Program-made: the position numbers and the translations under genes | IMG/VR virus record: IMGVR_UViG_2713896834_000007 | Coordinates: 1-17,048 of that record | Reading direction: 5' to 3' (one strand) | Length of the DNA stretch: 17,048 bases | DNA from: a virus | Lineage: Duplodnaviria > Heunggongvirae > Uroviricota > Caudoviricetes | Notes under the pieces: generated by a model | Database searches by the model: none | What the model saw: the letters and a program-made list of their open reading frames with translations, nothing else | What the model was told of the DNA's origin: nothing | Shown here: piece after piece, positions 1 through 15,839 of the stretch | Layout: each line of letters starts with the position of its first letter | Position numbering within the stretch: the first letter of the stretch is position 1

Positions 1-1254
1 ATGCTGGAACAAATGGGCATTGCCGCGAAGCAAGCCTCGTATAAATTAGCGCAACTCTCCAGCCGCGAAAAAAATCGCGTGCTGGAAAAAATCGCCGATG
101 AACTGGAAGCACAAAGCGAAATCATCCTCAACGCTAACGCCCAGGATGTTGCTGACGCGCGTGCCAATGGCCTTGGCGAAGCGATGCTTGACCGTCTGGC
201 ACTGACGCCCGCACGGCTGAAAGGCATTGCCGATGATGTGCGCCAGGTGTGTAACCTCGCCGATCCGGTGGGGCAGGTAATCGATGGCAGCGTACTGGAC
301 AGCGGCCTGCGTCTTGAGCGTCGTCGCGTACCGCTGGGGGTTATTGGCGTGATTTATGAAGCGCGCCCGAACGTGACGGTTGATGTCGCTTCGCTGTGCC
401 TGAAAACCGGTAACGCAGTGATTCTGCGTGGCGGTAAAGAAACCTGTCGCACTAACGCGGCAACGGTGGCGGTGATTCAGGACGCCCTGAAATCCTGTGG
501 CTTACCGGTGGGTGCCGTGCAGGCGATTGATAATCCTGACCGTGCGCTGGTCAGTGAAATGCTGCGTATGGATAAATACATCGACATGCTGATCCCGCGT
601 GGTGGCGCTGGTTTGCATAAACTGTGCCGCGAACAGTCGACGATCCCGGTGATCACAGGTGGTATAGGCGTATGCCATATTTATGTTGATGAAAGTGTAG
701 AGATTGCTGAAGCATTAAAAGTGATCGTCAACGCGAAAACTCAGCGTCCGAGCACATGTAATACGGTAGAAACGTTGCTGGTGAATAAAAACATCGCCGA
801 TAGCTTCCTGCCCGCATTAAGCAAACAAATGGAGGAAAGCGGCGTGGCATTACACGCAGATGCAGCTGCGCTGGCGCAGTTGCAGACAGGCCCCGCGAAG
901 GTGGTGGCTGTTAAAGCGGAAGAGTATGACGATGAGTTTCTGTCATTAGATTTGAACGTCAAAATCGTCAGTGATCTTGACGATGCCATCGCCCATATTC
1001 GTGAACACGGCACACAACACTCCGATGCGATCCTGACCCGCGATATGCGCAACGCCCAGCGTTTTGTTAACGAAGTGGATTCGTCCGCTGTTTACGTTAA
1101 CGCCTCTACGCGTTTTACCGACGGCGGCCAGTTTGGACTAGGTGCGGAAGTGGCGGTAAGCACACAAAAACTCCACGCGCGTGGCCCAATGGGGCTGGAA
1201 GCACTGACCACTTACAAGTGGATCGGTATTGGTGATTACACCATTCGTGCGTAA
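1..1254 (+). CDS. proA: Gamma-glutamyl phosphate reductase (glutamate-5-semialdehyde dehydrogenase), complete
   Basis: 417 aa ORF beginning [25 protein letters not shown], which I recognise as enterobacterial ProA; full length with TAA stop at 1252-1254; tRNA-Thr lies downstream as in the E. coli proBA-thrW locus. Confidence 0.93.
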
Positions 1255-1368
1255 ATAAAACCGGGTGATGCAAAAGTAGCCATTTGATTCACAAGGCCAT
1301 TGACGCATCGCCCGGTTAGTTTTAACCTTGTCCACCGTGATTCACGTTCGTGAACATGTCCTTTCAGG

Positions 1369-1444
1369 GCCGATATAGCTCAGTTGGTAGAGCAGCGCAT
1401 TCGTAATGCGAAGGTCGTAGGTTCGACTCCTATTATCGGCACCA
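1369..1444 (+). tRNA. thrW: tRNA-Thr (anticodon CGT), thrW-type; prophage attachment site
   Basis: 76 nt GCCGATATAGCTCAGTTGGTAGAGCAGCGCATTCGTAATGCGAAGGTCGTAGGTTCGACTCCTATTATCGGCACCA; acceptor stem GCCGATA/TATCGGC, anticodon loop CATTCGTAATG gives anticodon CGT, T-arm GGTTCGACTCC, 3' CCA encoded; integrase gene starts 15 bp downstream. Confidence 0.9.
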
Positions 1445-1458
1445 TTTAAATCAATAAG

Positions 1459-2622
1459 TTACACATCATTAGTACCTTCCTTATTTTTTGACTGGGACAA
1501 ATTTGGGACCGATGGGTTCAGGATCGAGTCTATTTGCCGTGCGTGTTCGGTAAGGTGATTAGGTGCAAGGTGAGCATATCGACGAACCATTTCGATAGAC
1601 TCCCAGCCTCCCATTTCCTGTAACACTGACAACGGGACTCCGGCTTGAACCAGCCAACTTGCCCAGGTGTGTCTCAAGTCGTGAAATCTGAAATCATCAA
1701 TACCAGCCCGTCTCAGCGCCGCTTTCCAGGCTGTGTTTGCGTCATACCGCATCTTCCTTACTGTTGGCGCTTTCGTTCCGTCTGGTTTGGTACAGCTTTC
1801 CTTGTACACAAATACCCAACGGTGATGATTCCCGATTTGTTTTTTCAATACGCGACATGCAGTATCATTCAGCGCAACGCCAATTGCGCGGTTTGATTTA
1901 CTCTCTTCCGGGTTTATCCATGCCACCCGGCGCTGCATATCTATTTGTTGCCATTCAAGGTTGATGATGTTCGAGCGTCTTAAGCCTGTTGCCAGTGCAA
2001 ATTCAACAACAGACTTTAATGGCTCCGGACATTCATCAATCAGCCTTTGTGCTTCATGGGGCTCCAGCCAGCGGATCCGTTTATTCTTTGGTTGAGGCAC
2101 TTTAATAATTGGTGCCTTATCCAGCATTTTCCATTCACGCTCTGCGGCTCTTAGTAGGGCCTTTATAAATGAAAGATGCGTAGCCTTCGTTGCAACGGAC
2201 GCTGGTTTTGGCGTGTATTCTGGAACAGGTTTCCCTTTTTTTCTGCATGCTTCTGCCCTGAGTTTCCAGTTTTCCTCATGACGCCGGTTCGTCATTTTCT
2301 GCATTGCTGAATAAATTTTTGATTCAGTAATGTCTCTTAGTTGCATTCCTGCGAAATGTTGAAGCCAGAATCCGATCCGGCTTTTGTCATCGTCCAGTGA
2401 TTTTTTATGTGCTTTCTCTTCAAGCCACCTGACACACGCTTCCTCGAACGTTATATCAGGTATTTCACCAAGTTTGCTGACCCGCCATGCTTCAGCCTTT
2501 AGCTTGTCATGGAGTTCTGTCGCCTGCCTTTTGTCCTTTGTTCCAAGAGACTGTTTAAATCTTTTACCGTTCGGCAATGTGAAACTGGCGTACCATATTT
2601 CACCTCTGCGGAAGAGTGACAT
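1459..2622 (-). CDS. int: Site-specific tyrosine integrase, phage P22 Int family
   Basis: 387 aa, [46 protein letters not shown]..., near-identical over long stretches to P22 integrase as I recall it; catalytic region [10 protein letters not shown] ... VRRYAHL; adjacent to tRNA-Thr, the P22 attachment site. Confidence 0.93.
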
Positions 2623-2849
2623 TTTCTTTCCTCTGTTATGCCATCACCCGCGCTCACCTGGACAGTATGCAGCGGAGATTGAAGAGCCGCAATGCAGGCT
2701 TGTCGTGTTGTGAGGTAAGGAGATTTATTCTTAGTGGGATCTTTGCGTGTTGCCTGAAGACGCCCTGTGCGTATCCAGTTAATGGCAGTCGGTCTGGATA
2801 TCTTGAGAAAATGACAGGCCTCATCGAGTGTGAGGCTGTATGGCTCCAT
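2499..2849 (-). CDS. xis: Excisionase (P22 Xis-like), 116 aa, overlapping the 5' end of int
   Basis: Internal Met of the 144 aa ORF: [32 protein letters not shown]... (HTH); start ATG at 2849-2847 overlaps the stop of the upstream gene (TAATG); 124 nt overlap with int is typical of int-xis pairs. Confidence 0.82.
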
Positions 2850-3154
2850 TATTTCACCTCTTGCTGTGACATTGTTGAGAAATGGATACCAGCTCGTTGC
2901 TGCCAGACGATCCAACCGAGAGTCATATCCCATGCCATGTATTCGTTATCGCCGTTTTTTGCTCTCCGACGATCTACTAAGTCACCAAAACGCTTTTCCA
3001 TGAATAATTCATAAGCTTCGCGTTCATCTGGTTCTACTTCCAGAGATAGGAGTGCGATTTCATAAGCACGGCGCTCAATATCGTCTCGCACGTCAAGGCT
3101 GCTGATACGCTCTTTAATTTCTTTAATCAGTTCTTTGTCGGTAAAAGTGGTCAT
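2849..3154 (-). CDS. yfdT: Early-left operon protein, YfdT-like (101 aa), function unknown
   Basis: 101 aa ORF translationally coupled to both neighbours; size and position match the K-12 CPS-53 yfdT gene as I recall it (assignment by recollection, not search). Confidence 0.55.
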   Translation of the reverse strand: MTTFTDKELIKEIKERISSLDVRDDIERRAYEIALLSLEVEPDEREAYELFMEKRFGDLVDRRRAKNGDNEYMAWDMTLGWIVWQQRAGIHFSTMSQQEVK

Positions 3155-3516
3155 TATGCTCCAGCCTCCGGTGCTTTTGGCATTACTGCCCAGTGAGTGA
3201 TATTGACGTTTTCAAGGTCCCCGACCTGAAATGTCCACTGCCATTCTCCGGTTTCTTTTTGTCCCCAGGTGTACCAGAGAGAACGCCAGCCAATCAGCCA
3301 GCCTTCTCCGTTAGCATCGAATAACAAAACACTTTCATTTGCTGGTGGCAGTTCAGTTGACACTGGTATTACTTTGTTTTCCAGTGCCGCACATTTAGCT
3401 TCAAGCGCGTCGAATTTACGTACCAGGTACTCAGCATTTGTTTCGTTCACTTTCAGATCTCGCGGTACACATTTCCCGCGAAGAAACCCTTCCATTTCGA
3501 AAACATTCATGCGCAT
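3154..3516 (-). CDS. yfdS: Early-left operon protein, YfdS-like (120 aa), function unknown
   Basis: 120 aa ORF; overlaps downstream gene start and upstream gene end; size/order match CPS-53 yfdS by recollection. Confidence 0.55.
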   Translation of the reverse strand: MRMNVFEMEGFLRGKCVPRDLKVNETNAEYLVRKFDALEAKCAALENKVIPVSTELPPANESVLLFDANGEGWLIGWRSLWYTWGQKETGEWQWTFQVGDLENVNITHWAVMPKAPEAGA

Positions 3517-4043
3517 TTGCGTAACTCCGATAACTCGTTAAAACGTTCCATAAACATCCCGTAGGCATGGCTAGGTGCCAGTGGAATCACGTTGAACATC
3601 TCTGTTGCCGGGATGCCTTCCAGTACAGGCCAGAAAGAGCCATCATCAAGCCCGAGATCGCGGCGTTCGGTTGCCAGCATGATAAGATCGGCATATTTCA
3701 CGGGCGTACTCATAACTGGGGGTAACCCGTATTTCTCACGGATTACGGCGTCAATTTTTTCTTCCATCCGTTTATAGTCAGGCAGAAGGCGTTTCAGTGG
3801 AGCGGGAATATCCTGGCAATACGCTTCTGTTGCATCATGCATTAACGCTTCAAAAGCAAATTCCTGCGGCACCAGCTGGCTGCAAAGCACCGCATGTTGG
3901 GCGACACTGTAGAAGTGAGAAAGATGACCGGCAAAGCGGCAGATATTTGAAAGGGAAACCGCGATATCGTTAATCACGATGTCGTCTTTATTTATCTTGT
4001 CATAATAAAAATGCTTCCCGGAAAAAGTTTTAATAAATGACAT
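3507..4043 (-). CDS. yfdR: HD-domain phosphohydrolase (YfdR-like 5'-deoxynucleotidase), 178 aa
   Basis: H...HD metal-binding signature (SVAQHAVL ... EALMHDATEAY); start chosen at MSFIKTF (ATG 4043-4041) preceded by GGAGAA RBS rather than the upstream in-frame ATG at 4070; 178 aa matches K-12 YfdR. Confidence 0.7.
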   Translation of the reverse strand: MSFIKTFSGKHFYYDKINKDDIVINDIAVSLSNICRFAGHLSHFYSVAQHAVLCSQLVPQEFAFEALMHDATEAYCQDIPAPLKRLLPDYKRMEEKIDAVIREKYGLPPVMSTPVKYADLIMLATERRDLGLDDGSFWPVLEGIPATEMFNVIPLAPSHAYGMFMERFNELSELRKCA

Positions 4044-4136
4044 TTTGTTCTCCACGTATATGCGCTGCACCGCGCTGAGTTTGGGTAAAAGGAAGCCCTC
4101 ACCATCCGGTGATTATTGAGTTAATTACGTTTCCAT

Positions 4137-4158
4137 AAATGCCCCCGCAGGGGCATTT
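4137..4158 (-). terminator. Intergenic hairpin between yfdQ-like and yfdR-like (possible partial terminator or RNA stabiliser)
   Basis: Perfect inverted repeat AAATGCCCC-cgca-GGGGCATTT in the 127 nt gap between the two genes; downstream U-tract is weak (TTTATGG on the minus strand). Confidence 0.3.
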
Positions 4159-4170
4159 GCAGTAATGAAA

Positions 4171-4995
4171 TCAGGCGGTGAAAGTACCAATAAAGGTTTC
4201 TACTTTGCTGTCTTTGAATTTTTCAACAAGCAGATCACGAAATTCGTTAGCCATTTCTTCCTGCACTGCTTCCAGCTGAATAATGCGCAGAACCAGTACA
4301 GGGCGATCACCAGTGATAATGCTGAGGCGTAATTTAAACGGACGTTCTTTCAGGCCTTCAAACGGAACGCATTTAAACTCAAATGCTACTGGCATAATGT
4401 CTTTGGTTTTCGCTTCGACAGACTCCATCAGAGAGCGTTTGCCGCTGAAGTCATTGTCTTCAAAATCAGCGGTCTGGTTTGCTTCAATCGTGATTTTACG
4501 GACCGCCGCAGCCGCTTTTGTTGCCTGAATGGCGTCACCATTAGCATCAAAGCCCACAAGGTAGTCGGCCCAGTCTTCAATCCATTCTGCCAGTGACTTC
4601 TGGGAGTTACGCTCGCCGTTAACAGACAACAGGGCAGAGAACGGTGCTGTCTTTTTCAGTTTGAGAGTGGCGGTGTTATCTGCGTGACCTGGTTCATCAA
4701 TAGTACCCAGGTTAAGCACACTGACGGCACGCATATTATCAGCATCGATAAAGCAGCGGGTGCCTTCATCTGCAAGATCTTTAGAATAACGGGTAAAATC
4801 ATCGATGCTGGCAGTGGAAAGCGCGCCACGGAAACGGAAGCGATTTAAATTAAATTTTTCCAGATCATGAATGCGGAAATTCTCAGGCAATGCCACAGCA
4901 TCGGCACCAATCTTACTGATAATTTCATTAACACCCTGAGCAGAAATAAGGGCATGGATTTGATTAATTGCGGTTGCGTCTAAGTTCTGAGACAT
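4171..4995 (-). CDS. yfdQ: YfdQ-like protein (DUF2303-type), 274 aa
   Basis: 274 aa [24 protein letters not shown]...; size and position match K-12 CPS-53 YfdQ by recollection. Confidence 0.65.
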
Positions 4996-5060
4996 AATAA
5001 GTCCTCACTATATAAAGATATTCAGTGATGAGATAAATAATCAGTTAATTAAGAACGATA

Positions 5061-5423
5061 TTAATGACCTGCTGCGCGTAGTTTTCCGTCAGGTTCACCG
5101 GCAAGAGTCAGTAATTGTCCCTGGTCTTTCTGCAGAATAGTCAGGCGACCACCGCGATTGACATACATCGGCGTTTCGGTGGTGTCTTCTTCGGAAATTT
5201 TCCCGCGGTTAGTCGGGCGAACATATGAGAGTTTGTGTTTGATTTTCACACGGTTCTCATCAAATGGTTCGATTTCCAGGTTGAGTGAGACCTTACCTTT
5301 GGTTTTCGTGTTCATCACACCGGAAGCGACTTCACTGAGAACTGCGCCGATTTTGGTTTCAAATACGCCGCCGTCCAGCTCCCCGATAAATGCCTGCACA
5401 TCAGTACTGCGTTCGCTAGCCAT
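5061..5423 (-). CDS. yfdP: YfdP-like protein, 120 aa (first gene of the early-left operon)
   Basis: Start placed at internal MASERSTDVQAFIGELDGG (ATG 5423-5421) with GAGGAA RBS 8 nt upstream; the 77 codons upstream in the 197 aa ORF read as junk and run into the structured leader. Confidence 0.6.
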   Translation of the reverse strand: MASERSTDVQAFIGELDGGVFETKIGAVLSEVASGVMNTKTKGKVSLNLEIEPFDENRVKIKHKLSYVRPTNRGKISEEDTTETPMYVNRGGRLTILQKDQGQLLTLAGEPDGKLRAAGH

Positions 5424-5555
5424 TTTGCTGTTCCTCATCATATCGACCCTGCAAGGTCGGTTGGTTTCTCCACAAAACAGAGAAGAACACCTGCGGTGGC
5501 AGCCGCCCGGATGGATTGGGTTATGAGCCCGTCGTCCGGTGATGCTCTTCTCTGT

Positions 5556-5607
5556 TTTGTAAAAAGAGCGGTACCAGCCGGAAGCAAGTGTACAAACTGG
5601 TACCGCC
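5556..5607 (-). terminator. Intrinsic terminator within the PL leader (leftward transcription)
   Basis: Minus-strand RNA GGCGGUACCAG-[loop ~19 nt]-CUGGUACCGCU followed by CUUUUUAC; 10 bp perfect stem (plus 5568-5577 pairs with 5597-5606) with a U-tract only on the minus strand. Confidence 0.5.
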
Positions 5608-6000
5608 AAAGCAGTGGCTGTTGTGGTGGGGTTGTCACTCAGGCGTATGGTCAACCTGACAATCCGGTGTCCTCAACGGGGAAAGAGTAACCCCGCCATA
5701 CTTACCGCCGCGCCATTTCGCGGATTACCACAACGCTGAGAGCACTTAGCCAGTTACGGCACCACACTTTGTCGCGGCTCCATAAATGCCCTCATCGTTG
5801 CACCCTGGTCTCTTCCCAGGCGTCAAACCGAATCGCCACGCTGGTTAGGCGTCTTATCAGCATCATCATTGACTTGCACATTCCGGCTACCTGGTTTGTT
5901 TGCCCGAGCAAGGAGTGGATTGTCCCCTTTAACGTCCCCAGACCGCTAACGACGCATGTGCCATACGCCGTGTTACAACCAAATTTTGTTAGTACCTTGT

Positions 6001-6080
6001 TTGTTTGTCTGGAAAGAAAGATAAAATGAAGTTGCGCATTATGCAAGTGTTTTTGTTGCGAGATATGCAATTTAAAGGGT
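6001..6080 (-). promoter_or_regulatory. Putative OL/PL: leftward early promoter with operator sites
   Basis: Two 15 bp TTGC-N7-GCAA sites (TTGCGCATTATGCAA at 6033-6047; TTGCGAGATATGCAA at 6055-6069) sharing the TTGCG half-site found at OR; minus strand shows TTGCAT -35-like hexamers. Exact -10/-35 assignment is uncertain. Confidence 0.45.
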
Positions 6081-6087
6081 AATGAAA

Positions 6088-6105
6088 AGCCACCTTTGGG
6101 TGGCT
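6088..6105 (-). terminator. Terminator hairpin downstream of the repressor gene
   Basis: AGCCACC-tttg-GGTGGCT 7 bp stem located 21 nt past the cI-like stop, followed on the minus strand by UUUCAUU. Confidence 0.45.
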
Positions 6106-6125
6106 AATTGATGAGGAGGTAAGGG

Positions 6126-6818
6126 TTAATTGTGTCGCTTAAGGGTTTGTGACTGGCTGATTAAGACCTTTCCAAAGACCATAAACCGGTGTTCATTTTC
6201 GCTGGTAATTCCCCATTCACGGTAAATCTGGTTATCAGAAATCACCAGTAGTTTGTCAGGTATCATTTGCAGTCGTTTGACATAAATTTTATCATCAAAA
6301 CCAAATACATAGATACCATCTCCATCAAACTGATTGATACTGACATCAACGAAGATGAGATCTCCTGGCTCAATGGTTGGACACATACTGTCCCCACGAA
6401 CGTTGATAACTTTAATGTGATTGGCTGGCCGTCCGCCAAACATCGATACAGCATTATCAGTTCTGTATTCAATGGCATGAATCACATCAATGACATCACC
6501 GCCCTGGATAAGGCCATTTCCCGCACTGGCACTGACATCCAGCATTTCAATACGGAATACATCCTTCACCTGCGCAACATCCTCACTAATACTGTTTTTA
6601 CATACAGTATTACTTTTGACGTCTGAGGTAAAGAGATCAGCAATATCAACACCTAAGCTCCTGGCAATATTACTCAGGGCTTGTTCAGTGAATTGTTTCT
6701 GCTTACCTGTTTCCAGGCGTGAGATATTCGCCGCATCCACTCCTATTGCTTCAGCGAGATCGGCGATTTTCATGTTCTTCGCCTGGCGAAGTTGTCTGAC
6801 TCGGTTTCCTATGTTCAT
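6126..6818 (-). CDS. CI-like prophage repressor (N-terminal XRE-family HTH + C-terminal S24 LexA-like peptidase domain)
   Basis: 230 aa; N-terminal VRQLRQAKNMKIADLAEAIGVDAANISRLETGK HTH; C-terminal VRGDSMCPTIEPGDLIFVD (Ser nucleophile) and YVKRL (Lys) typical of autocleaving S24 repressors; divergent from a Cro-like gene. Confidence 0.9.
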   Translation of the reverse strand: MNIGNRVRQLRQAKNMKIADLAEAIGVDAANISRLETGKQKQFTEQALSNIARSLGVDIADLFTSDVKSNTVCKNSISEDVAQVKDVFRIEMLDVSASAGNGLIQGGDVIDVIHAIEYRTDNAVSMFGGRPANHIKVINVRGDSMCPTIEPGDLIFVDVSINQFDGDGIYVFGFDDKIYVKRLQMIPDKLLVISDNQIYREWGITSENEHRFMVFGKVLISQSQTLKRHN

Positions 6819-6915
6819 GCGTTTATTACATTTCTTTATTGCGCGTTAAGCAAATCAACTTGCGCAAAATATTTGCGTGAAATAATATGCTCATCACGCA
6901 ATATGTGGAGGTCAT
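6819..6915. promoter_or_regulatory. OR region: divergent PR/PRM promoters with repeated operator half-sites
   Basis: TTGCGCGTTAAGCAA (6839-6853), TTGCGCAA (6860-6867), TTGCGTGA (6873-6880) and inverted TCACGCAA (6893-6900); PR candidate -35 TTGCGC (6860-6865), 17 nt spacer, -10 TAATAT (6883-6888), GGAGG RBS before cro ATG at 6916. On the other strand TTGCTT-17 nt-TGTAAT ends 6 nt before the cI ATG, suggesting a leaderless cI transcript as in lambda PRM. Confidence 0.6.
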
Positions 6916-7176
6916 ATGCAATCACCATTACGGAATGTGCGTAAGGCGCACGGATTTACTTTGCAGCATGTTGCTGCTGGCGTTCAGGTCAATCCAGCGA
7001 CGCTGAGTCGTATTGAAAGACTGGAACAAATTCCATCTATAGATCTTGCAGAACGTCTGGCCAATTTTTTTAAGGGTGAAATCAGCGAAATGCAGATTCT
7101 TTATCCGGCACGTTTTCAATCTAGCCAAAACCAGAATGGGTTTAAACCACAGGAACAGGAGGTAAGCCGTGGGTAA
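6916..7176 (+). CDS. Cro-like HTH transcriptional regulator (XRE family)
   Basis: 86 aa; HTH LRNVRKAHGFTLQHVAAGVQVNPATLSRIER; first gene of the rightward operon opposite the repressor. Confidence 0.8.
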   Translation: MQSPLRNVRKAHGFTLQHVAAGVQVNPATLSRIERLEQIPSIDLAERLANFFKGEISEMQILYPARFQSSQNQNGFKPQEQEVSRG

Positions 7177-7726
7177 TCATCACTGGAAAGTGGAAAAACA
7201 GCCTGAGTGGTACGTGAAAGCTGTCAGAAAAACTATCGCGGCGTTGCCGGGGGGTTACGCTGAAGCTGCTGAGTGGCTGGATGTAACAGAGAACGCATTA
7301 TTTAACCGCCTTCGTGCCGATGGCGATCAGATTTTCCCGCTGGGATGGGCAATGATTTTACAACGTGCTGGTGGCACTCACTTCATTGCTGACGCTGTGG
7401 CGCAGTCTGCAAATGGCGTCTTTGTGTCTCTTCCTGACGTCGAGGATGTGGACAATGCCGATATTAACCAGCGTTTACTGGAAGTCATTGAACAGATCGG
7501 CAGTTATTCAAAACAGATTCGTTCGGCAATCGAAGACGGTGTAGTGGAACCGCATGAGAAGACAGCAATTAACGACGAGCTGTACCTCTCAATTTCGAAG
7601 CTGCAGGAGCATGCAGCACTTGTCTACAAAATTTTTTGCGTTTCAGAAAGTAATGACGCCCGCGAGTGTGCAGCTCCGGGCGTCGTGGCGTCGATTGCTT
7701 CTGGTTGTGGAGAAACTAACGCATGA
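7169..7726 (+). CDS. CII-like / YdaT-family regulatory protein
   Basis: 185 aa, GTG start with AGGAGG RBS 5 nt upstream; occupies the cII position between cro and the replication gene; region [31 protein letters not shown] resembles the CII/YdaT DNA-binding core. Family assignment by resemblance only. Confidence 0.5.
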
Positions 7727-8081
7727 ACAGTTTAACAACACACTACCGTCGCTCGCAACTGATTGCGCTTCCTGTACCGGGTGGAAAAGCGAAGGTGGAG
7801 TATTGCTATGCAGTAAATGTACCAGGTGACAGGGAAATTGTAACCCACAGCTTTGCTGAGTGGGCTGTGGGGGATTTCAACCGGCAGAAGGAGACAGTCC
7901 TTTGCGACAAGTTAACCGCTGGTTCAAAGATCACTACGGAGTGCCCGTCAGAGTCATTCGTTGGGAGCCGGAAACACAACGGGTTATCTACCTCCGCGAA
8001 GGCTATGAGCATGAGTGCTTCAGCCCGCTCGAACAGTTTCGTCGTAAATTCAGGGAAGTAGAGGTCGGTCATGAGCACTAA
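7723..8081 (+). CDS. Hypothetical small protein; two overlapping frames (7723-8061 and 7860-8081), possibly frameshifted
   Basis: Frame beginning at 7723 (ATGA overlap with upstream stop) reads protein-like for about 50 codons then becomes low-complexity ([15 protein letters not shown]); the -1 frame from 7860 reads protein-like in its C-terminal part ([37 protein letters not shown]) and overlaps the replication gene start. Confidence 0.35.
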
Positions 8082-9012
8082 ATTAACCGGCTATGTATGG
8101 GATGGTTGCGCTGCATCAGGCATGAAATTATCCAGCGTGGCAATTATGGCCCGCCTGGCTGATTTCAGTAATGACGAAGGTGTGTGCTGGCCATCAATTG
8201 AAACCATTGCCCGCCAGATTGGCGCGGGGATGAGTACCGTCAGAACGGCTATCGCACGGCTGGAAGCAGAAGGCTGGTTAACGCGTAAGGCGCGTCGCCA
8301 GGGTAACCGCAATGCGTCGAATGTTTATCAGCTTAACGTTGCGAAGCTTCAGGCAGCGGCATTTTCTCAACTGTCAGATTCTGACCCGTCAAAATCTGAC
8401 GCATCAAAATCTGACCCGTCAAAATTTGATGCGTCGAAATCTGGCAAAAAAGCGGGTTTTCACCCGTCAGAATCTGGTGGGGATCCGTCAGTAAAATCAA
8501 AACATGATCCGTCAGATAAAAAAACTTCTCGTCCGGACGCTTCGCAACCGGACACGCAGACGGCTGAACAGGATTTTTTAACTCGCCATCCTGATGCGGT
8601 TGTATTCAGCCCTAAAAAGCGCCAGTGGGGAACGCAGGATGATTTGACCTGTGCACAGTGGCTCTGGAAAAAAATCATTGCCCTGTACGAGCAGGCCGCC
8701 GAATGTGACGGCGAGGTGGTTCGTCCCAAAGAACCGAACTGGACAGCCTGGGCAAACGAAATTCGCCTGATGTGTGTGCAGGATGGTCGTACTCACAAAC
8801 AAATCTGCGAGATGTACAGCCGCGTCAGCCGCGATCCGTTCTGGTGCCGTAACGTGCTCAGCCCGTCGAAGTTGCGGGAAAAATGGGATGAGCTTTCCCT
8901 GCGCTTATCGCCGTCCGTCAGCACGTACACCGAAAAACGCGAAGACCCGTACTTCAAAGCCAGTTACGACAACGTGGACTACAGCCAGATCCCGGCAGGA
9001 TTCAGGGGGTGA
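8071..9012 (+). CDS. Phage replication initiation protein (lambda O-like; N-terminal winged-helix DNA-binding domain, repetitive linker, C-terminal domain)
   Basis: 313 aa; N-terminal KLSSVAIMARLADFSNDEGVCWPSIETIARQIGAGMSTVRTAIARLEAEGWL wHTH; internal SKSDP/SKSDA/SKFDA peptide repeats encoded by DNA iterons; position after cro/cII-like genes. Confidence 0.8.
   Translation: MSTKLTGYVWDGCAASGMKLSSVAIMARLADFSNDEGVCWPSIETIARQIGAGMSTVRTAIARLEAEGWLTRKARRQGNRNASNVYQLNVAKLQAAAFSQLSDSDPSKSDASKSDPSKFDASKSGKKAGFHPSESGGDPSVKSKHDPSDKKTSRPDASQPDTQTAEQDFLTRHPDAVVFSPKKRQWGTQDDLTCAQWLWKKIIALYEQAAECDGEVVRPKEPNWTAWANEIRLMCVQDGRTHKQICEMYSRVSRDPFWCRNVLSPSKLREKWDELSLRLSPSVSTYTEKREDPYFKASYDNVDYSQIPAGFRG
8376..8530. 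repeat. Putative origin of replication: ~15 bp direct iterons plus A/T-rich tract inside the replication initiator gene
   Basis: Four to five tandem units AAAATCTGAC(C/G)C(G/A)TC (about 8376-8450), further CCGTCAG copies and A-rich runs (GGCAAAAAAGCGGG, GATAAAAAAACTTCTC) to about 8530; the same layout as lambda ori inside gene O. Confidence 0.55.
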
Positions 9013-9503
9013 TCATGAGTCTTTTGAATGAAGTTCAGAAATACATTGAAGCCCATCCGGGGTGTACTTCCGGAGACATTGCGGATGCTTTTGCTGGTTA
9101 CTCACGGCAGCGCGTTCTGCAGTCAGCAAGCAAGTTACGTCAGAGTGGGCGTGTGGCTCACCGTTGTGAAGGAGATACACGCAGACATTTCCCGCGCCTG
9201 ACTGAGAGAGCGCAGGAGCCGGAACCACAACCAGTTCGTGAAACCAGACCTGTGCGCAATTTCTATGTCGGCACTAACGATCCCCGGGTAATTTTGTGCC
9301 TGACCCGCCAGGCTGAAGAACTGGAGTCCAGGGGCTTATACCGTCGTGCTGCAACGGTGTGGATGGCGGCATTCCGTGAAAGCCATTCCCAGCCAGAACG
9401 AAACAATTTTCTGGCGCGTCGTGAGCAGTGTTTACGGAAAAGCAGCAAGCGCGCTGTATCGAGTGATGAGTGGTATCTGTCAGGGAATTACGTGGGGGCG
9501 TAA
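9009..9503 (+). CDS. yfdN: YfdN-like / PerC-family-like protein, 164 aa
   Basis: 164 aa ORF overlapping the upstream gene stop; size matches K-12 CPS-53 YfdN by recollection; C-terminal RRAATVWMAAFRES...ERNNFLARREQC segment resembles PerC-type regulators. Weakly supported. Confidence 0.45.
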   Translation: MIMSLLNEVQKYIEAHPGCTSGDIADAFAGYSRQRVLQSASKLRQSGRVAHRCEGDTRRHFPRLTERAQEPEPQPVRETRPVRNFYVGTNDPRVILCLTRQAEELESRGLYRRAATVWMAAFRESHSQPERNNFLARREQCLRKSSKRAVSSDEWYLSGNYVGA

Positions 9504-9829
9504 TGACGACGTTAACTCAATGCCAGCAGCAGGTGCTGGATATGCTGATTTCTTACCAGAAAGAACGTGGCTTCCCGCCAACCAATCAGGAGGTGGCAAC
9601 CATGCTGGGATACCGTTCAGTGAATGCAGCGGTGGAGCATCTTCGCGCACTGGAGAAAAAAGGCGTCATCACGATAAAGCGTGGCGTGGCCCGGGGGATC
9701 ACGCTTCATACCGCGGTGAAGGACGACGACAGCGAGGCGGTCGGTATCATCCGCGCACTGCTTGCCGGTGAGGAAAACGCCAGGCAGCGTGCAGCCCACT
9801 GGTTACATGAGAGGGGCCTGAAAGTATGA
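9503..9829 (+). CDS. LexA N-terminal DNA-binding-domain-only protein (no S24 peptidase domain), 108 aa
   Basis: MTTLTQCQQQVLDMLISYQKERGFPPTNQEVATMLGYRSVNAAVEHLRALEKKGVITIKRGVARGI aligns position-for-position with the E. coli LexA N-terminus ([63 protein letters not shown]); start at ATG 9503 overlapping the upstream stop (TAATG). Confidence 0.75.
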   Translation: MTTLTQCQQQVLDMLISYQKERGFPPTNQEVATMLGYRSVNAAVEHLRALEKKGVITIKRGVARGITLHTAVKDDDSEAVGIIRALLAGEENARQRAAHWLHERGLKV

Positions 9830-10215
9830 AGCTGATCTTGCCTTTCCCGCCCAGCGTGAACACGTACTGGCGACACCCCAACAAAGGGGCGTTTGCAGGT
9901 AAGAGCCTGATAAGCGCGGCGGGGCGCAAATTCCAGAGCGCGGCGTGTGCAGCAATAGTTGAGCAGTTACGTCGTCTGCCAAAACCAACGTCGGCACCTG
10001 CTTCAGTGGAGATCGTGTTGTTTCCTCCGGATAACCGGATCCGCGATCTGGACAACTATAACAAGGCGCTGTTTGACGCCCTGACCCACGCGGGTGTGTG
10101 GGAAGACGACAGCCAGGTGAAAAGAATGCTGGTGGAGTGGGGACCGGTTATCCCGGAAGGGAAGGTCGAGATCACTATCAGTAAGTACGAGAAAACGGCG
10201 GGTGCAGCCGCCTGA
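9826..10215 (+). CDS. rusA: RusA-family Holliday junction resolvase
   Basis: 129 aa; LPFPPSVNTYWRH ... NRIRDLDNYNKALFDALTHAGVWEDDSQV with the conserved RusA Asp cluster; ATGA overlap with the upstream gene; typical nin-region location. Confidence 0.85.
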   Translation: MKLILPFPPSVNTYWRHPNKGAFAGKSLISAAGRKFQSAACAAIVEQLRRLPKPTSAPASVEIVLFPPDNRIRDLDNYNKALFDALTHAGVWEDDSQVKRMLVEWGPVIPEGKVEITISKYEKTAGAAA

Positions 10216-10234
10216 TCAAGAGGAGAAACGAAGT

Positions 10235-11032
10235 ATGAATAATCTGATGGTCATTGATGGTATTGAAGTTCGTCGTGATGCTTATGGGCGTTACAGCCTG
10301 AACGATCTGCACAGGGCTGCTGGTTCTCTGGATAAGCATAAGCCTGCATTCTGGCTCCGCAATGAGCAAACTGAACGTTTAATAAGCGAGTTGCAGATTT
10401 GCAACTCGGTCAATATAGAGCCAGTTAACGTTATTCGTGGCGGAAATAACCAGGGGACGTATGTCTGCAAAGAACTGGTGTATGCCTATGCAATGTGGAT
10501 CAGCCCGTCATTCCATCTGAAGGTGATCCGTACTTTCGACATGGTAACCAGCGCACCGGAAAAATTATCCGGACAGGCTGCTGACAAGATGCAGGCTGGT
10601 GTGATTCTGCTGGACTTTATGCGCCGGGAATTAAACCTGTCTAACTCTTCAGTGCTTGGTGCCTGTCAGAAACTCCAGGAGGCTGTTGGCTTACCGAATC
10701 TGGCACCGCGCTATGCCATTGATGCTCCTGCTGACGCGCCTGATGGCTCAAGCCGCCCCACGCTGTCACTGAGTGCACTGCTGAAGCAGTATGGTATCCG
10801 CCTGACAGCTAATCAGGCATATCACCAGATGGTGAAGCTGGGGATCGTCGAGCAGCGCGAACGATACAGCCGTACCGCGATTAACAACATCAAAAAATTC
10901 TGGTCGCTGACAGCGAAAGGCTGCATGTTCGGCAAGAATATCACCAGTCCCGCAAATCCGCGCGAGACGCAGCCGCATTTCTTCGAATCCCGATTCCCTG
11001 AGCTGTTAAAGCTGCTCGATACCGTTCATTGA
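10235..11032 (+). CDS. KilA-N domain protein (antirepressor-like)
   Basis: Start at MNNLMVIDGIEVRRDAYGRYSLNDLHRAAG with AAGAGGAG RBS upstream; N-terminal KilA-N-type domain (KPAFWLRNEQTERLI ... YVCKELVYAYAMWISPSFHLKV), C-terminal domain unassigned. Confidence 0.7.
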   Translation: MNNLMVIDGIEVRRDAYGRYSLNDLHRAAGSLDKHKPAFWLRNEQTERLISELQICNSVNIEPVNVIRGGNNQGTYVCKELVYAYAMWISPSFHLKVIRTFDMVTSAPEKLSGQAADKMQAGVILLDFMRRELNLSNSSVLGACQKLQEAVGLPNLAPRYAIDAPADAPDGSSRPTLSLSALLKQYGIRLTANQAYHQMVKLGIVEQRERYSRTAINNIKKFWSLTAKGCMFGKNITSPANPRETQPHFFESRFPELLKLLDTVH

Positions 11033-11033
11033 G

Positions 11034-11612
11034 GTGACCGTGAGAGCACTACTGACCCCTGAAATTGCCCCGCGTATGGGGATCGTATTGTTCAGGCCAG
11101 GTTCAGAGTTGATGCCCCTGTTTATGCAGGGGCGTGTCCTGCTGGAGCCTGAGCCGGAACGTTATTCATCTTTCGCCAGTGGTGCAGTTCCGGCGGCATC
11201 ACAACCGCTGGCGGATGATCCTGCCGTTCGGGCCGTGTTCCGCAATGAGGCAGTGATCCGTCGTGCTGGTGGCGTGGAATGTCTTGAAAGCTGGTTACTT
11301 CGTGAAAAAAGCTGCCAGTGGCCTCATTCCGACTGGCACAGCGAGAACATGACCACAATGCGACACGCTCCGGGCGCAATCCGTCTGTGCTGGCACTGCG
11401 ATAACCAGCTGCGCGATCAGTTCACGGAACGGCTGGAATCAATGGCAACGGATAACTGTGCCCGCTGGGTGTTGTCTGTTGTGCGTCGGGATCTCGGTTT
11501 TGATGACAGTCACGTTGTGACAATGCCGGAACTGTGCTGGTGGCTGATTCGTAATGATCTGGCGGATGCCTTTCTGGTGTTGAGTTTGATGGTTCCAGAG
11601 ATATTACTTTAA
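11034..11612 (+). CDS. Hypothetical Cys/His-containing protein; 3' end probably disrupted at the prophage internal deletion junction
   Basis: 192 aa, GTG start; contains CQWPHSDWH ... LCWHCDNQ (possible metal-binding); its last ~18 codons overlap, out of frame, the open tail-fibre reading frame that begins by 11558. Confidence 0.35.
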
Positions 11613-12538
11613 CCGCCGCGCATGTGGCTGCTTTTGCCAGAAGGGCAACGGATACATATGCCGATGCGGATGGTGGCGTTCCCTGGAATGCCGAATCAGG
11701 CGCTTACAATGTCACCCGCTCTGGCGACACCTATATTCTGGTTAACTTCTATACCGGAGTCGGAAGTTGCCGGACCCTGCAGATGAAGGCGCATTACAGA
11801 AATGGAGGTCTGTTCTACCGTTCCTCAAGAGATGGCTATGGTTTTGAGGAAGGCTGGGCAGAAGTTTATACCTCGAAAAATCTTCCACCAGAAAGCTACC
11901 CAGTTGGCGCACCAATCCCGTGGCCATCAGATACCGTTCCGTCTGGTTATGCCCTGATGCAGGGGCAGACTTTTGACAAATCTGCTTACCCGAAACTTGC
12001 AGCGGCTTATCCGTCAGGCGTGATCCCTGATATGCGTGGCTGGATGATTAAGGGCAAGCCCGCCAGTGGTCGGGCCGTATTGTCTCAGGAACAGGACGGC
12101 ATTAAATCGCACACCCACAGCGCCAGCGCATCCAGTACGGATTTGGGGACGAAAACCACATCGTCGTTTGATTACGGCACTAAATCCACGAATAACACTG
12201 GTGCGCATACCCATAGTGTTAGCGGTACGGCTGCTTCAGCCGGTGCACATACCCATTCGATGACATTTGTTTCAGGTGGTTCCAGTGGTGCTCCGGGAAG
12301 TGGATCACCTGATTATTCTAAATACAGTGTTAACACTTCTTCTGCAGGCGCTCATACGCACTCTGTATCGGGTACTGCTGCAAGCGCAGGTGCACACGCA
12401 CATACTGTCGGTATTGGTGCTCATACGCACTCCGTTGCGATTGGTTCACATGGACATACCATCACCGTTAACGCTGCTGGTAACGCGGAAAACACCGTCA
12501 AAAACATCGCATTTAACTATATTGTGAGGCTTGCATAA
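11558..12538 (+). pseudogene. 5'-truncated side tail fibre gene (C-terminal fragment)
   Basis: Reading frame is open from 11558 (after an in-frame TGA at 11555-11557) with no proper start; tail-fibre-like sequence ([12 protein letters not shown] ... repeated [20 protein letters not shown]); first in-frame GTG at 11624; followed directly by tfa. Confidence 0.7.
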
Positions 12539-13122
12539 TGGCATTCAGAATGAGTGAACAACCACGGACCATAAAAATTTATAATCTGCTGGCCGGAACT
12601 AATGAATTTATTGGTGAAGGTGACGCATATATTCCGCCTCATACAGGTCTGCCAGCAAACAGTACCGATATTGCACCGCCAGATATTCCGGCAGGCTTCG
12701 TGGCTGTTTTCAACAGTGATGAGGCATCGTGGCATCTCGTTGAAGATCATCGGGGTAAAACGGTTTATGACGTGGCTTCCGGCGACGCGTTATTTATTTC
12801 TGAACTCGGTCCGTTACCGGAAAATGCCACTTGGTTATCCCCGGAAGGGGAGTTTCAGAAGTGGAACGGCACAGCCTGGGTGAAAGATGCAGAAGCAGAA
12901 AAACTGTTCCGGATCCGGGAGGCGGAAGAAACAAAAAACAGCCTGATGCAGGTAGCCAGTGAGCATATTGCGCCACTTCAGGATGCTGTAGATCTGGAAA
13001 TCGCAACGGAGGAAGAAACCTCATTGCTGGAAGCCTGGAAAAAGTATCGGGTGTTGCTGAACCGTGTTGATACATCAACTGCACCGGATATTGAGTGGCC
13101 AGAAGAACCAGACACCGTGTAA
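12538..13122 (+). CDS. tfa: Tail fibre assembly protein (Tfa)
   Basis: 194 aa; start ATG overlaps tail-fibre stop (ATAATG); N-terminal [62 protein letters not shown] is typical of lambda-type Tfa chaperones. Confidence 0.8.
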
Positions 13123-13133
13123 GCAAAAAAGAA

Positions 13134-13172
13134 AAACCGCAGACACGACGTATGCATGACGTGCTGCGGTTT
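13134..13172. terminator. Bidirectional intrinsic terminator between tfa (+) and the GIY-YIG gene (-)
   Basis: AAACCGCAG ... CTGCGGTTT 9 bp stem enclosing a near-palindromic ATGCAT-centred loop; A-tract upstream (GCAAAAAAGAAAAA) and T-rich downstream, so each strand sees a hairpin followed by a U-tract. Confidence 0.6.
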
Positions 13173-13191
13173 ATGCTTATCACTTAAAGAC

Positions 13192-14010
<819 letters not shown>

Positions 14011-14371
14011 TCATTGCAAGGGCTCACAACCAGTAGTGTTGAGAAAACCATCGGAGAAATGAGGCTAAGCCTTTGAATTTACATAGTACAAAAAAGATAC
14101 TTTTCCTCATAATGTGAGCTAATTTTATGTTTCGTTTGATGATTGGACCGGTCTCGAAAACCGTAGACACATAGTATGCGTTAATTTATGAACAAACTAC
14201 TTGTCTGCTGTTTTTCTGTCATTAGTCGTATATAGAATGATTCTCTATGCCTAACAAAGCATCACCAGTGCTAGATTACGTTGTAGTCACTGTTTAAATA
14301 TCCAGATAAAACATTTCCTTCTGGGTTGAATGAGTGATAAAGTTTCACCCATTAGACCCCTTGGAGGAATT

Positions 14372-15805: not shown

Positions 15806-15811
15806 GAACAT

Positions 15812-15834
15812 CTCCCGGCCTTTTAAGCCGGGAG
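15812..15834. terminator. Bidirectional terminator shared by the convergent M and R genes
   Basis: CTCCCGGC-cttttaa-GCCGGGAG perfect 8 bp stem sitting in the 34 nt gap between the two stop codons. Confidence 0.6.
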
Positions 15835-15839
15835 TCAGC

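Follow-up and report, generated by a model that had tools for sequence, protein, structure and literature searches.

A mosaic of conserved RNA modules in the leader of the yfdP-like operon of a lambdoid prophage

Introduction

Early-leader RNAs of temperate phages are known from few cases, such as the put elements of HK022 and scattered prophage small RNAs (sRNAs); in lambda, the boxB hairpin of nutL carries the loop GAAGA. Here we describe the leader that separates the early leftward promoter PL from the first protein gene of the left operon, a yfdP-like gene, in a lambdoid prophage contained in IMG/VR record IMGVR_UViG_2713896834_000007 (positions 1 to 17,048; this whole stretch of 17,048 nucleotides, nt, is called the window below). 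The leader lies on the minus strand and runs from a start inferred near position 6010 to the yfdP-like ATG at 5423, a distance of about 587 nt.

Two described systems serve as points of comparison. In the put RNA of HK022, base G35, which follows stem I and pairs with A9, is essential (PMC9378689). In Escherichia coli K1 RS218, a prophage of the mEp460 type encodes sRNA-17, which was found to be 193 nt long by 5'/3' rapid amplification of cDNA ends (RACE) and Northern blotting; copies with a replaced core were named 'degenerative sRNA-17' by the authors, who used a fragment taken as the sRNA-17 promoter for a gel shift with ArcA (PMC7719688). As described below, the sRNA part of our leader is a variant of this published sRNA-17, and the part that appears to be new as an RNA is a conserved element located upstream of it, which we call module A.

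Results

Module A is a conserved pseudoknotted RNA

The leader is made up of the following features.

5972-5796, minus strand: module A (domain 1), a conserved pseudoknotted RNA, supported by a covariance-model match and covariation
5800-5731, minus strand: domain 2, a long imperfect hairpin with basal helices CAACG/CGUUG and GAGGGCA/UGCUCUC and a variable tip
5735-5562, minus strand: sRNA-17 variant (module B plus T1), placed by the published primers, which map here, and by alignment with mEp460
5606-5560, minus strand: intrinsic terminator T1, GCGGUACCAG, a 19-nt loop, CUGGUACCGC, then UCUUUUUA (5567-5560)
5560-5472, minus strand: module C, an 89-nt element with a closing stem of 15-16 base pairs (bp) and a conserved three-hairpin core
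5471-5424, minus strand: end of the 5' untranslated region (5' UTR), with GGAGAAACCAAC, a hairpin (5461-5442) and a Shine-Dalgarno-like GAGGAA, before the yfdP-like ATG at 5423

Module A is about 165-185 nt long. Its helix P1 (5970-5966/5954-5950) closes an invariant loop, UAUGGCACAUG, helices P2a and P2b enclose a variable sub-domain, helix P3 bears the loop UUCACCA, and helix P4 (5820-5816/5808-5804) bears the loop GAAGAGA in the window and GAAGAG(A/U) in the family. A pseudoknot, PK2, pairs AACC with GGUU in the window and CACC with GGUG elsewhere. A second pseudoknot, PK1, is proposed, in which GCACAU would pair with AUGUGC.

Phage records, IMG/VR contigs and 20 Enterobacterales genome loci yielded 139 instances of module A (78 distinct), and covariation was scored after 23 representatives with less than 95.5% identity had been aligned with MAFFT. 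In this alignment 99.0% of the cells are paired and 11 of the 30 pairs have changed on both sides. The covariation score was 0.281, compared with 0.107±0.010 in shuffles, none of which did as well (0 of 500); when the partners were slid by 1-3 columns, 25-40% of the cells were paired and the score was at most 0.057. The compensatory changes preserve helices P1, P2b, P3 and P4 as well as PK2, meaning that four helices and one pseudoknot are backed by covariation. The six pairs of PK1 and the three pairs of P2a are invariant among the 23 representatives and hence unproven. Many of the unpaired bases are invariant as well. A sequence-only reading of this DNA had proposed that homologous leaders be compared for compensatory changes in the stems; those of module A indeed covary beyond both the shuffled and the slid controls. 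An RNAalifold consensus that pairs the strands of helix P1 with distant partners was rejected, since it shows no two-sided changes whereas the local P1 hairpin has them.

The covariance model of module A, R1, run with its filters off and on both strands, gave one match in the whole window (149.4 bits, E = 3.5e-45) and found nothing in HK022, HK639, SfII, ST64B, Flotzy or the K-12 prophage CPS-53. Module A has no matching family in Rfam 15. An Rfam and covariance search of the leader had also been proposed by the sequence-only reading, and it came back empty: neither at the gathering threshold nor at E ≤ 10 did Rfam 15 place a family in window 5300-6200. Module A is a real RNA family whose conservation at the RNA level is solid, and it appears not to have been described as an RNA before. 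Full-text literature searches returned nothing that describes it, an earlier paper on put-like RNAs (King 2011) being outside their reach. The Pas sRNAs (bioRxiv 2026) were considered and set aside: they are located in the late region and are unrelated to module A.

Module A keeps its structure while its neighbours change

Module A is present in 1376 of 5426 complete E. coli genomes, at 1641 places, 256 of which are on plasmids; among the E. coli matches listed, none has an annotated feature on module A (RefSeq). Other Enterobacterales in which it was found include members of Kosakonia, Citrobacter, Kluyvera, Klebsiella, Phytobacter, Candidatus Erwinia dacicola, Scandinavium, Superficieibacter and Pseudescherichia. 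The retrieved carriers are all enterobacterial phages or Enterobacterales except two, a short contig labelled as a Bacillota metagenome-assembled genome and a phage deposited with a Stenotrophomonas host.

Three kinds of context can be described. In lambdoid-type contexts, module A starts 30-150 nt behind the early leftward promoter, and in 8 of the 12 lambdoid-type representatives it is preceded, at a distance of 115-510 nt, by the end of a same-strand repressor gene (helix-turn-helix, HTH, plus S24, or HTH/CI). In epsilon15-like phages, module A belongs to a small cassette that is located between the terminase and portal genes and transcribed opposite to them; the promoter region of this cassette carries the repressor and integration host factor (IHF) sites annotated in epsilon15, and module A is usually followed by tRNA-Arg(UCU), two tandem terminators and one small gene, the cassette converging on the terminase gene. 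Such a layout suits a self-contained RNA gene. In phage P1, finally, the C1-controlled ban operon has module A at 2.3 kb from its start, with tRNA-Ile immediately upstream and ban downstream. Depending on the context, what lies downstream is a module B variant, tRNA-Arg, tRNA-like pieces, an RprA-like sRNA or ban. Since the structure of module A is kept while these neighbours change, it behaves as an autonomous unit and not as one partner in a terminator/antiterminator switch. The landmarks of RNA processing that flank it are tRNA-Ile in phage P1 and tRNA-Arg in epsilon15-like phages, and also long ACAAC...GUUGU hairpins of a type annotated as an RNase III site in epsilon15. An intrinsic terminator is found 80-575 nt downstream in 16 of the 23 representative contexts and in none of four P1-type contexts.

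These contexts bear on the idea that module A is a ligand-sensing riboswitch or an attenuator that controls T1 by alternative pairing. Module A does have a complex fold with a pseudoknot and with junction bases that never vary, and a possible switch can be drawn in which GUUG (5734-5731) pairs either with CAAC (5800-5797) or, as part of GUUGUGGU, with ACCACAAC (5627-5620). However, the interval between module A and the terminator is not only variable in length but unrelated in sequence from one context to the next, copies of the P1 type have no terminator at all, no segment of module A is complementary to T1, and the module in between is itself a stable sRNA or a tRNA. We thus hold control by a riboswitch or attenuator to be extremely improbable.

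Several phages show module A or its neighbours reduced or exchanged. In epsilon15 itself (locus L131, 1506-1581) only the first ~50 nt of module A are left, the rest having apparently been deleted together with tRNA-Arg by recombination between two UUCCCUUGAUGCU motifs; SPN1S has both copies, and the two loops that hold them, the inner loop of module A and that of a T1-type terminator, share the motif YCCCUUG. In mEp390 (L127, 2095-2200) another conserved module, AUCAGCCAUUCACGCUAAGCAUC...GGUGCUUAGCGGGACUGGAAGAGUUACCACUUGGAGACGGUCC, replaces domain 2 after module A, and the same module is found in PAT1, Kosakonia and Phytobacter loci (L128, L135, L137). SfII (L002, 2625-2790) and ST64B (L158, 935-1010) share a different 5' module, GAACAGGCAGGACGCCCACGAAGUAGCCGCC...CCGGAUGAUUCG, in the place of module A, and SfII keeps a stub of the helix P1 hairpin, ACGGUGCAUGUGUCGU.

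Domain 2 is followed by a variant of sRNA-17

The basal helices of domain 2 have the generic form (A)CAAC(G)/(C)GUUG(U) and GAGRGCA/UGCUCUC. In the folds of 15 representatives they are kept with differing sequences (AAGAGCA/UGCUCUU, GAUGGCU/AGUCAUC, GGAAA.GGCG/CGCC.UUUCC), so the conservation of domain 2 at the RNA level is likewise solid; its tip ranges from 51 to 158 nt among homologues and sometimes includes tRNA-like pieces or arms. Hairpins of the domain 2 type are also found upstream of module A in epsilon15-like phages, and the epsilon15 record has an RNase III site annotated there. GUUG of domain 2 is directly followed by UGG, which in epsilon15-like phages belongs to the first bases of tRNA-Arg. 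Module B is closed by the pairing of GUUGUGGU (5734-5727) with ACCACAAC about 100 nt further on, after which come a single-stranded stretch and T1. From this pairing and the position of UGG, module B sits where a tRNA sits elsewhere. A tRNA search of the window returned thrW alone, and module B is thus no recognisable tRNA.

We placed sRNA-17 on the window using the published primers and the mEp460 sequence. The 5' end of the sRNA, CGUUGUGGU, corresponds to window position 5735 and belongs to the 3' basal strand of domain 2; the 3' end corresponds to 5562, within the T1 U-tract. The primer pair for the full-length sRNA maps at 5735-5727 (CGTTGTGGT...) and 5593-5562 (stem and tail of T1), and the 5'-RACE primer at 5627-5609. 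When window 5735-5562 was aligned with sRNA-17 of mEp460 (L001, 2897-3090), the first 9 and the last 67 nt were identical, and the core, i.e. the central ~100 nt, was found to be replaced by unrelated sequence of which only short islands align. The window copy falls in the 'degenerative sRNA-17' class. The sequence-only reading had considered a discrete sRNA of up to ~450 nt ending at T1. A discrete sRNA can indeed be retained for the 3' third of the leader, where the sister sRNA-17 has been mapped, but its length cannot, the predicted product having about 174-193 nt.

Other sRNA-like sequences are found in related leaders. The equivalent stretch of SfII gives a full-length match to STnc100 of Rfam (RF02076; 39.5 bits, E = 8e-7, gathering threshold 47), and that of ST64B a match of 35.1 bits, below the same threshold. 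After module A, BUCT708 and Flotzy have an RprA-like segment (RF00034; 50 and 43 bits, respectively, gathering threshold 70). In a 216-nt search of the window (5545-5760), no Rfam family was matched, even at E ≤ 10, STnc100 and RprA included. The segments of BUCT708 (L133, 2183-2302) and Flotzy (L160, 1370-1506), both in PL leaders, carry the exact RprA seed AAUUGCUGUGUGUAGUCUU directly before the terminator; judging by this sequence, the phage segment could be a mimic of the host rpoS-activating sRNA.

The fragment used for the ArcA gel shift corresponds to window 5984-5735, that is, module A plus domain 2. This stretch might therefore act mainly as DNA, as the ArcA-regulated promoter of sRNA-17, the RNA structure of module A being incidental. 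Phosphorylated ArcA does shift the fragment (PMC7719688), and two GTTA direct repeats are present in CGTTAGCGGTCTGGGGACGTTAAAGG. However, a protein-binding promoter needs no compensatory changes, and such changes preserve P1, P2b, P3, P4 and PK2. The GTTA repeats are missing in most members of the module A family (SPN1S, mEp390 and the Klebsiella phages, for example), and module A also occurs inside the ban operon of phage P1 and before tRNA-Arg, without sRNA-17 after it. No convincing −35/−10 (sigma-70) sequences were seen by eye before 5735, where a consensus scan lists none on the minus strand. Moreover, the forward primer that the authors used for quantitative reverse-transcription PCR lies at the 5' edge of module A, so that the region is transcribed; the amplicon, equivalent to window 5984 to about 5608, spans module A through module B, which places both on one RNA in vivo in RS218. 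Altogether, a role as promoter DNA alone seems quite improbable to us.

T1 is an intrinsic terminator and module C precedes yfdP

An intrinsic terminator had been claimed from the sequence, and T1 bears this out with a 10-bp perfect stem (5606-5597/5577-5568), a 19-nt loop and a U-tract. Seven of the ten pairs are G-C, UCUUUUU follows, and T1 qualifies as an intrinsic terminator; it was missed by a consensus terminator scan because of its 19-nt loop. Homologous terminators follow module A in both lambdoid and epsilon15-like contexts, with covarying stems (GGCGGU...ACCGCC, GGUACCAG/CUGGUACC, GGUGAU/AUCACC, GGUGG/CCACC), each followed by UUUUUACA. T1 is also the mapped 3' end of sRNA-17 in RS218 (PMC7719688), and this identity with the 3' end of an experimentally mapped sRNA of a sister prophage is solid. 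In wild-type RS218, yfdP (0.49) and yfdR (0) are essentially silent whereas sRNA-17 is detectable by Northern blot (PMC7719688), meaning that T1 terminates in vivo. When the sRNA-17 core was replaced by a cat cassette, yfdP rose to 47 and yfdR to 8.5 (PMC7719688). Judged from the primer design, the P1 priming site of the cassette is on the T1 side. The increase would most simply be explained by read-through from cat, given the general properties of Datsenko-Wanner cassettes.

Module C starts at the last base of the T1 tail, upstream of the yfdP-like genes. The 15-bp perfect inverted repeat previously noticed here is present (5560-5546 with 5486-5472) and, at 84% complementarity, can be followed over 25 nt. 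The length of 89 nt is constant among the 20 distinct versions that were retrieved. Compensatory changes are seen in ST64B (AGAAAAGAG/CUCUUUUCU; GCUG/CAGC for GCGG/CCGC) and in Citrobacter, and the G.U pairs, as read from the sequences, are possible on the minus-strand RNA only; for T1 and module C, too, conservation at the RNA level is solid. Module C, T1 and yfdP occur together in SfII and ST64B, two phages without module A. The simplest reading of these sequences is that module C would be a 5'-UTR element of the yfdP operon. The stem-loop reported before the yfdP-like ribosome-binding site corresponds to the hairpin at 5461-5442, upstream of the ATG at 5423. Only the last ~43 nt of the leader before yfdP are kept in K-12 CPS-53; as most of the leader is missing there, K-12 transcriptomics is uninformative.

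The leader is non-coding and mosaic

All the features described by the sequence-only reading were recovered on the minus strand where it had placed them, including the small GC hairpins CCUGG-GAAGAGA-CCAGG (5820-5804), CGGGG-N9-CCCCG (5695-5677) and CCGCG-AAAUGG-CGCGG (5724-5709). Its description of the leader as densely structured also agrees with the predicted folds, since the minimum free energy of the 582-nt leader is −225.7 kcal/mol, compared with −195.5±6.1 in dinucleotide shuffles; this is 30 kcal/mol better (z = −4.94), and none of 100 shuffles did as well.

The leader had further been taken as non-coding and devoid of an N-like open reading frame (ORF), and both statements hold. The minus-strand ORFs of the leader are short (at most 92 amino acids, aa), have no Pfam match and are not conserved in frame, and no protein of the leader or of the left operon is N-like or conserved and Arg-rich. 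The sole AUG-initiated ORF in the conserved part encodes 29 aa, starting from the invariant GGAAUGUGC; its homologues use three different frames and vary from 6 to 80 aa, and the spacings between invariant anchors among homologues give all residues modulo 3. Coding on either strand of module A was rejected for want of a Pfam match and of a conserved frame, and so was, for the same reasons, a plus-strand ORF of 86 aa that is listed in mEp460 as a hypothetical protein. The non-coding nature of the leader is thus solid. Upstream of the yfdP ATG, no stop codon interrupts the frame for 77 codons, which run across module C and T1; the resulting 197-aa ORF begins at a TTG (window 5061-5654, minus strand). 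In phiSTEC1575-Stx2k, Flotzy and SfII, small 'hypothetical proteins' are annotated over these RNA modules, and these are most likely mis-annotations.

The sequence-only reading had presented one leader stretch; although it is non-coding throughout, it is not a single element but a mosaic of at least five separately conserved modules. In BLAST searches against phage records, the leader splits into pieces with different distributions. Sequences 74-83% identical to the 5' ~260 nt occur in P1, P7 and D6, in epsilon15-like phages (phiV10, SPN1S, PAT1, Tyrion and Klebsiella phages) and in other lambdoid phages of different immunity (mEp390, 733R5, BUCT708). The middle piece is found again in other phages, and the last ~210 nt, comprising the terminator, the inverted repeat and the start of yfdP, travel together in SfIV, SfII and ST64B. 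The leader is therefore a mosaic of independently mobile RNA modules, an architecture that we regard as solid.

Position behind PL and readings as an antiterminator

The window is a lambdoid prophage of the SfII/SfV/mEp460 type that adjoins tRNA-Thr (1369-1444). The genes for the integrase, the excisionase and a cI-like repressor (HTH plus Peptidase_S24, 6818-6126) are on the minus strand, with a cI terminator at 6105-6088; cro and a CII/CP76-like gene are on the plus strand. According to Pfam, the left operon encodes YfdP-like, DUF2303, HD/YfbR-like and DUF551 proteins and an HTH_17 excisionase. The promoter features upstream of the leader are given below.

6018..6070, minus strand: PL region, read from the sequence; predicted start near 6010
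6070-6056 (TTGCATATCTCGCAA) and 6046-6032 (TTGCATAATGCGCAA), minus strand: two 15-bp PL operators of the form TTGCAnnnnnnGCAA
6046-6041 and 6023-6018, minus strand: PL hexamers, −35 TTGCAT and −10 TATCTT, separated by a 17-nt spacer, read from the sequence

Operators and hexamers are thus found where OL/PL had been proposed, and the promoter is plausible; a consensus promoter scan left the hexamers unscored. SfII and ST64B share the layout of this region. No strong intrinsic terminator was found in the PR operon (6900-11600).

Helix P1 of module A begins about 40 nt after the inferred start and T1 is located about 365 nt further. Module A thus lies just after PL in an N-less lambdoid phage and upstream of terminators, as put does, and the sequence-only reading had put forward antitermination of the HK022 type. 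According to this hypothesis, module A would be a cis-acting processive antiterminator, the nascent RNA binding its own polymerase and replacing N, and after induction T1 and later terminators would be read through into yfdP-xis-int. Module A is indeed the first conserved element behind PL in N-less lambdoid phages, it follows the repressor gene on the same strand in the 8 of 12 representatives mentioned above, terminators separate it from the genes in 16 of the 23 contexts, and it acts as a module independent of what comes after it. In its E. coli members the P1 hairpin, A-CGGCG...CAUG-CGUCG, resembles by eye the base of put stem I including a G.U pair, and its CAUG matches the put CAUG that holds U28. 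The many invariant unpaired bases and the nearly exclusively enterobacterial carriers go in the same direction, and since PR has no strong intrinsic terminator, a single left-side copy could suffice. However, the put sites of HK022 and HK639 (putL-like element annotated at 9188-9313) remain unmatched by R1 at E ≤ 10. The base that follows helix P1, the equivalent of put G35, is U, A, C or G among the 23 representatives, and the base that precedes it A, C or U. The single R1 match in the window also means that there is no second copy behind PR, a weaker feature since HK639 is annotated with a putL-like element only. The hypothesis is weakened by RS218, which makes the leader RNA with module A and accumulates an RNA with its 3' end at T1 but keeps yfdP and yfdR silent. 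SfII and ST64B have the same T1, module C and left-operon layout without the core of module A, and epsilon15 has lost most of it; the copy of phage P1, 2.3 kb into its operon, has no terminator between it and ban; and processive read-through would cause antisense transcription of the terminase gene in epsilon15-like phages. Membership of module A in the put family is therefore not supported beyond its position, and we consider a put-like antiterminator rather unlikely, if conceivable in an induced phage.

Alternatively, the leader might be a nut-like loading site at which GAAGAG/GAAAGA hairpins, as boxB equivalents, are bound by a phage or host antiterminator protein. The P4 hairpin, which is preceded by GAC and has the loop GAAGAGA, resembles boxB of lambda nutL, and solitary GAC-stem-GAA(A/G)(A/G)-stem...ACAAC copies recur in the leaders of BUCT708 and mEp390. 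Taken as a boxB, P4 would have a covarying 5-bp stem and an invariant 7-nt loop, GAAGAG(A/U), longer than the GAAGA of lambda. In contrast, no N-like or Arg-rich conserved ORF exists in the leader or the left operon; boxA (CGCUCUUA-like; YGCTCTTWA with one mismatch) has 7 matches in the window where 12.7 would be expected by chance, and within the leader it matches the T1 tail alone (5570-5562). No common candidate protein was seen in the phage P1 and epsilon15-like loci inspected, no systematic search having been made, and P4 is only one helix of a larger conserved fold. The boxB-like hairpin singled out by the sequence-only reading thus exists, with covariation in its stem, but as a built-in helix of a larger pseudoknotted fold and accompanied by neither an N-like protein nor boxA; a nut-like site is very improbable. 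P4-type hairpins with stems of 4-5 bp, often with ACAAC behind them, are scattered before and after the terminator in BUCT708 (L133, ~1925, ~2370 and ~2430) and mEp390 (L127, ~2285).

Some observations concern other parts of the prophages. Between window positions 9800 and 13200 the prophage seems truncated or rearranged: the RusA and KilA-N genes are immediately followed by tail-fibre genes, and no Q, lysis or head genes could be recognised between the two groups. Rfam IS009 (RF02111) has a full-length match there (12881-13079, plus strand, 229.5 bits), inside a 194-aa ORF (12538-13122) that follows a tail-fibre gene (11624-12535, Collar/Phage_fiber domains); IS009 is among the commonest Rfam matches in the regions flanking PasB sRNA genes (2026 preprint). 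In mEp460 (L001, 366-554, minus strand), the antirepressor region matches C4 antisense RNA (83.6 bits) and isrK (67 bits). These lie to the right of cro/cII and are unrelated to the leader, but illustrate how rich in RNA immunity regions are.

Discussion

We propose, with about even confidence, that the stretch from PL to the first protein gene is a PL-driven non-coding RNA operon, processed to discrete RNAs and closed by T1. Transcription from PL, together with low-level transcription in the lysogen, would give a precursor of ~450 nt that mostly stops at T1. This precursor would be cut at the foot of the domain 2 hairpin, probably by RNase III; in epsilon15-like homologues, tRNA-Arg starts 4 nt downstream of the equivalent position. 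The cut would release a 5' RNA of about 275 nt, in which module A folds autonomously into its pseudoknotted structure, and a 3' RNA of about 174 nt, the core-swapped sRNA-17 variant, which has the 3' stem-loop and U-tail typical of Hfq-type sRNAs. T1 would insulate the yfdP-to-int operon, which would be reached only by read-through and would have its own 5'-UTR element, module C. What we say about function draws on sequence comparison and on the one study of a sister prophage (PMC7719688).

Several points weigh against this proposal. The authors who described sRNA-17 take the DNA of module A and domain 2 as an ArcA-regulated promoter (PMC7719688); should sRNA-17 be a primary transcript, the processing step would drop out. 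The left operon, with xis and int, is needed, and a strong terminator behind PL without N invites antitermination. Base-pairing sRNAs are not typically large, pseudoknotted and rich in invariant unpaired bases as module A is, and part of the invariance of module A stems from the exact-pattern scans and anchor-based retrieval by which its members were collected. Finally, the core of module B in the window is unlike that of sRNA-17 and has no Rfam match, so it may be inactive.

As to module A itself, our guess is that it might be a protein-binding RNA made from the very start of the early programme, RNA polymerase being one candidate partner. A doubtful but attractive idea is that module A, made as the earliest product of the early programme, represents a new class of phage RNAs that bind proteins. 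In its most interesting version, module A would bind RNA polymerase and alter pausing or termination like put, with an unrelated and larger pseudoknotted architecture; in another version, it would sequester a host factor such as a ribonuclease or a defence protein.

The leader shows that one phage leader can be an array of exchangeable RNA modules. Among these, module A is an RNA absent from Rfam 15. About one in four complete E. coli genomes carries it, and so do three unrelated temperate lineages, lambdoid phages, P1-type plasmid prophages and the epsilon15-like phages of Salmonella, Klebsiella and Enterobacter. The published 'promoter region' of the virulence-linked sRNA-17 can be re-read as a structured RNA on the same transcript. 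Module A also provides a testable object for two questions, how N-less lambdoid phages, many Shiga-toxin phages among them, pass the terminator behind PL, and what phages do with the very first RNA that they make.

Compared with known systems, module A shares with put its place directly behind the PL of an N-less lambdoid phage, upstream of terminators. It differs from put in having 165-185 nt and two proposed pseudoknots, one of them backed by covariation, whereas put has ~70 nt and two stems, and it is also present, unlike put, in phage P1 and next to tRNAs in epsilon15-like phages. The likeness to lambda lies in a GAAGA-type hairpin in the PL leader, at the operon position of nutL and N; here, however, there is no N-like protein and no boxA, the loop has 7 nt, and the hairpin is part of a larger RNA. 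With STnc100 and RprA, module B plus T1 have in common the arrangement of a UGGUG...CACCA closing helix, a single-stranded seed and a terminator, the seed stretch of the window being AGCCACUGCUUU in place of UGCUGUGUGUAGUC. The closest relative is sRNA-17, found at the equivalent position of a prophage leader of the same type, with an identical 5' end (CGUUGUGGU) and 67 identical nt at the 3' end, including ACCACAACAGCCACUGCUUUG and T1. It measures 193-194 nt, the window variant 174 nt, and the central ~100 nt differ in sequence. The 250 bp upstream, which are promoter DNA for the authors who described sRNA-17, are by covariation a structured RNA here, made up of module A and domain 2.

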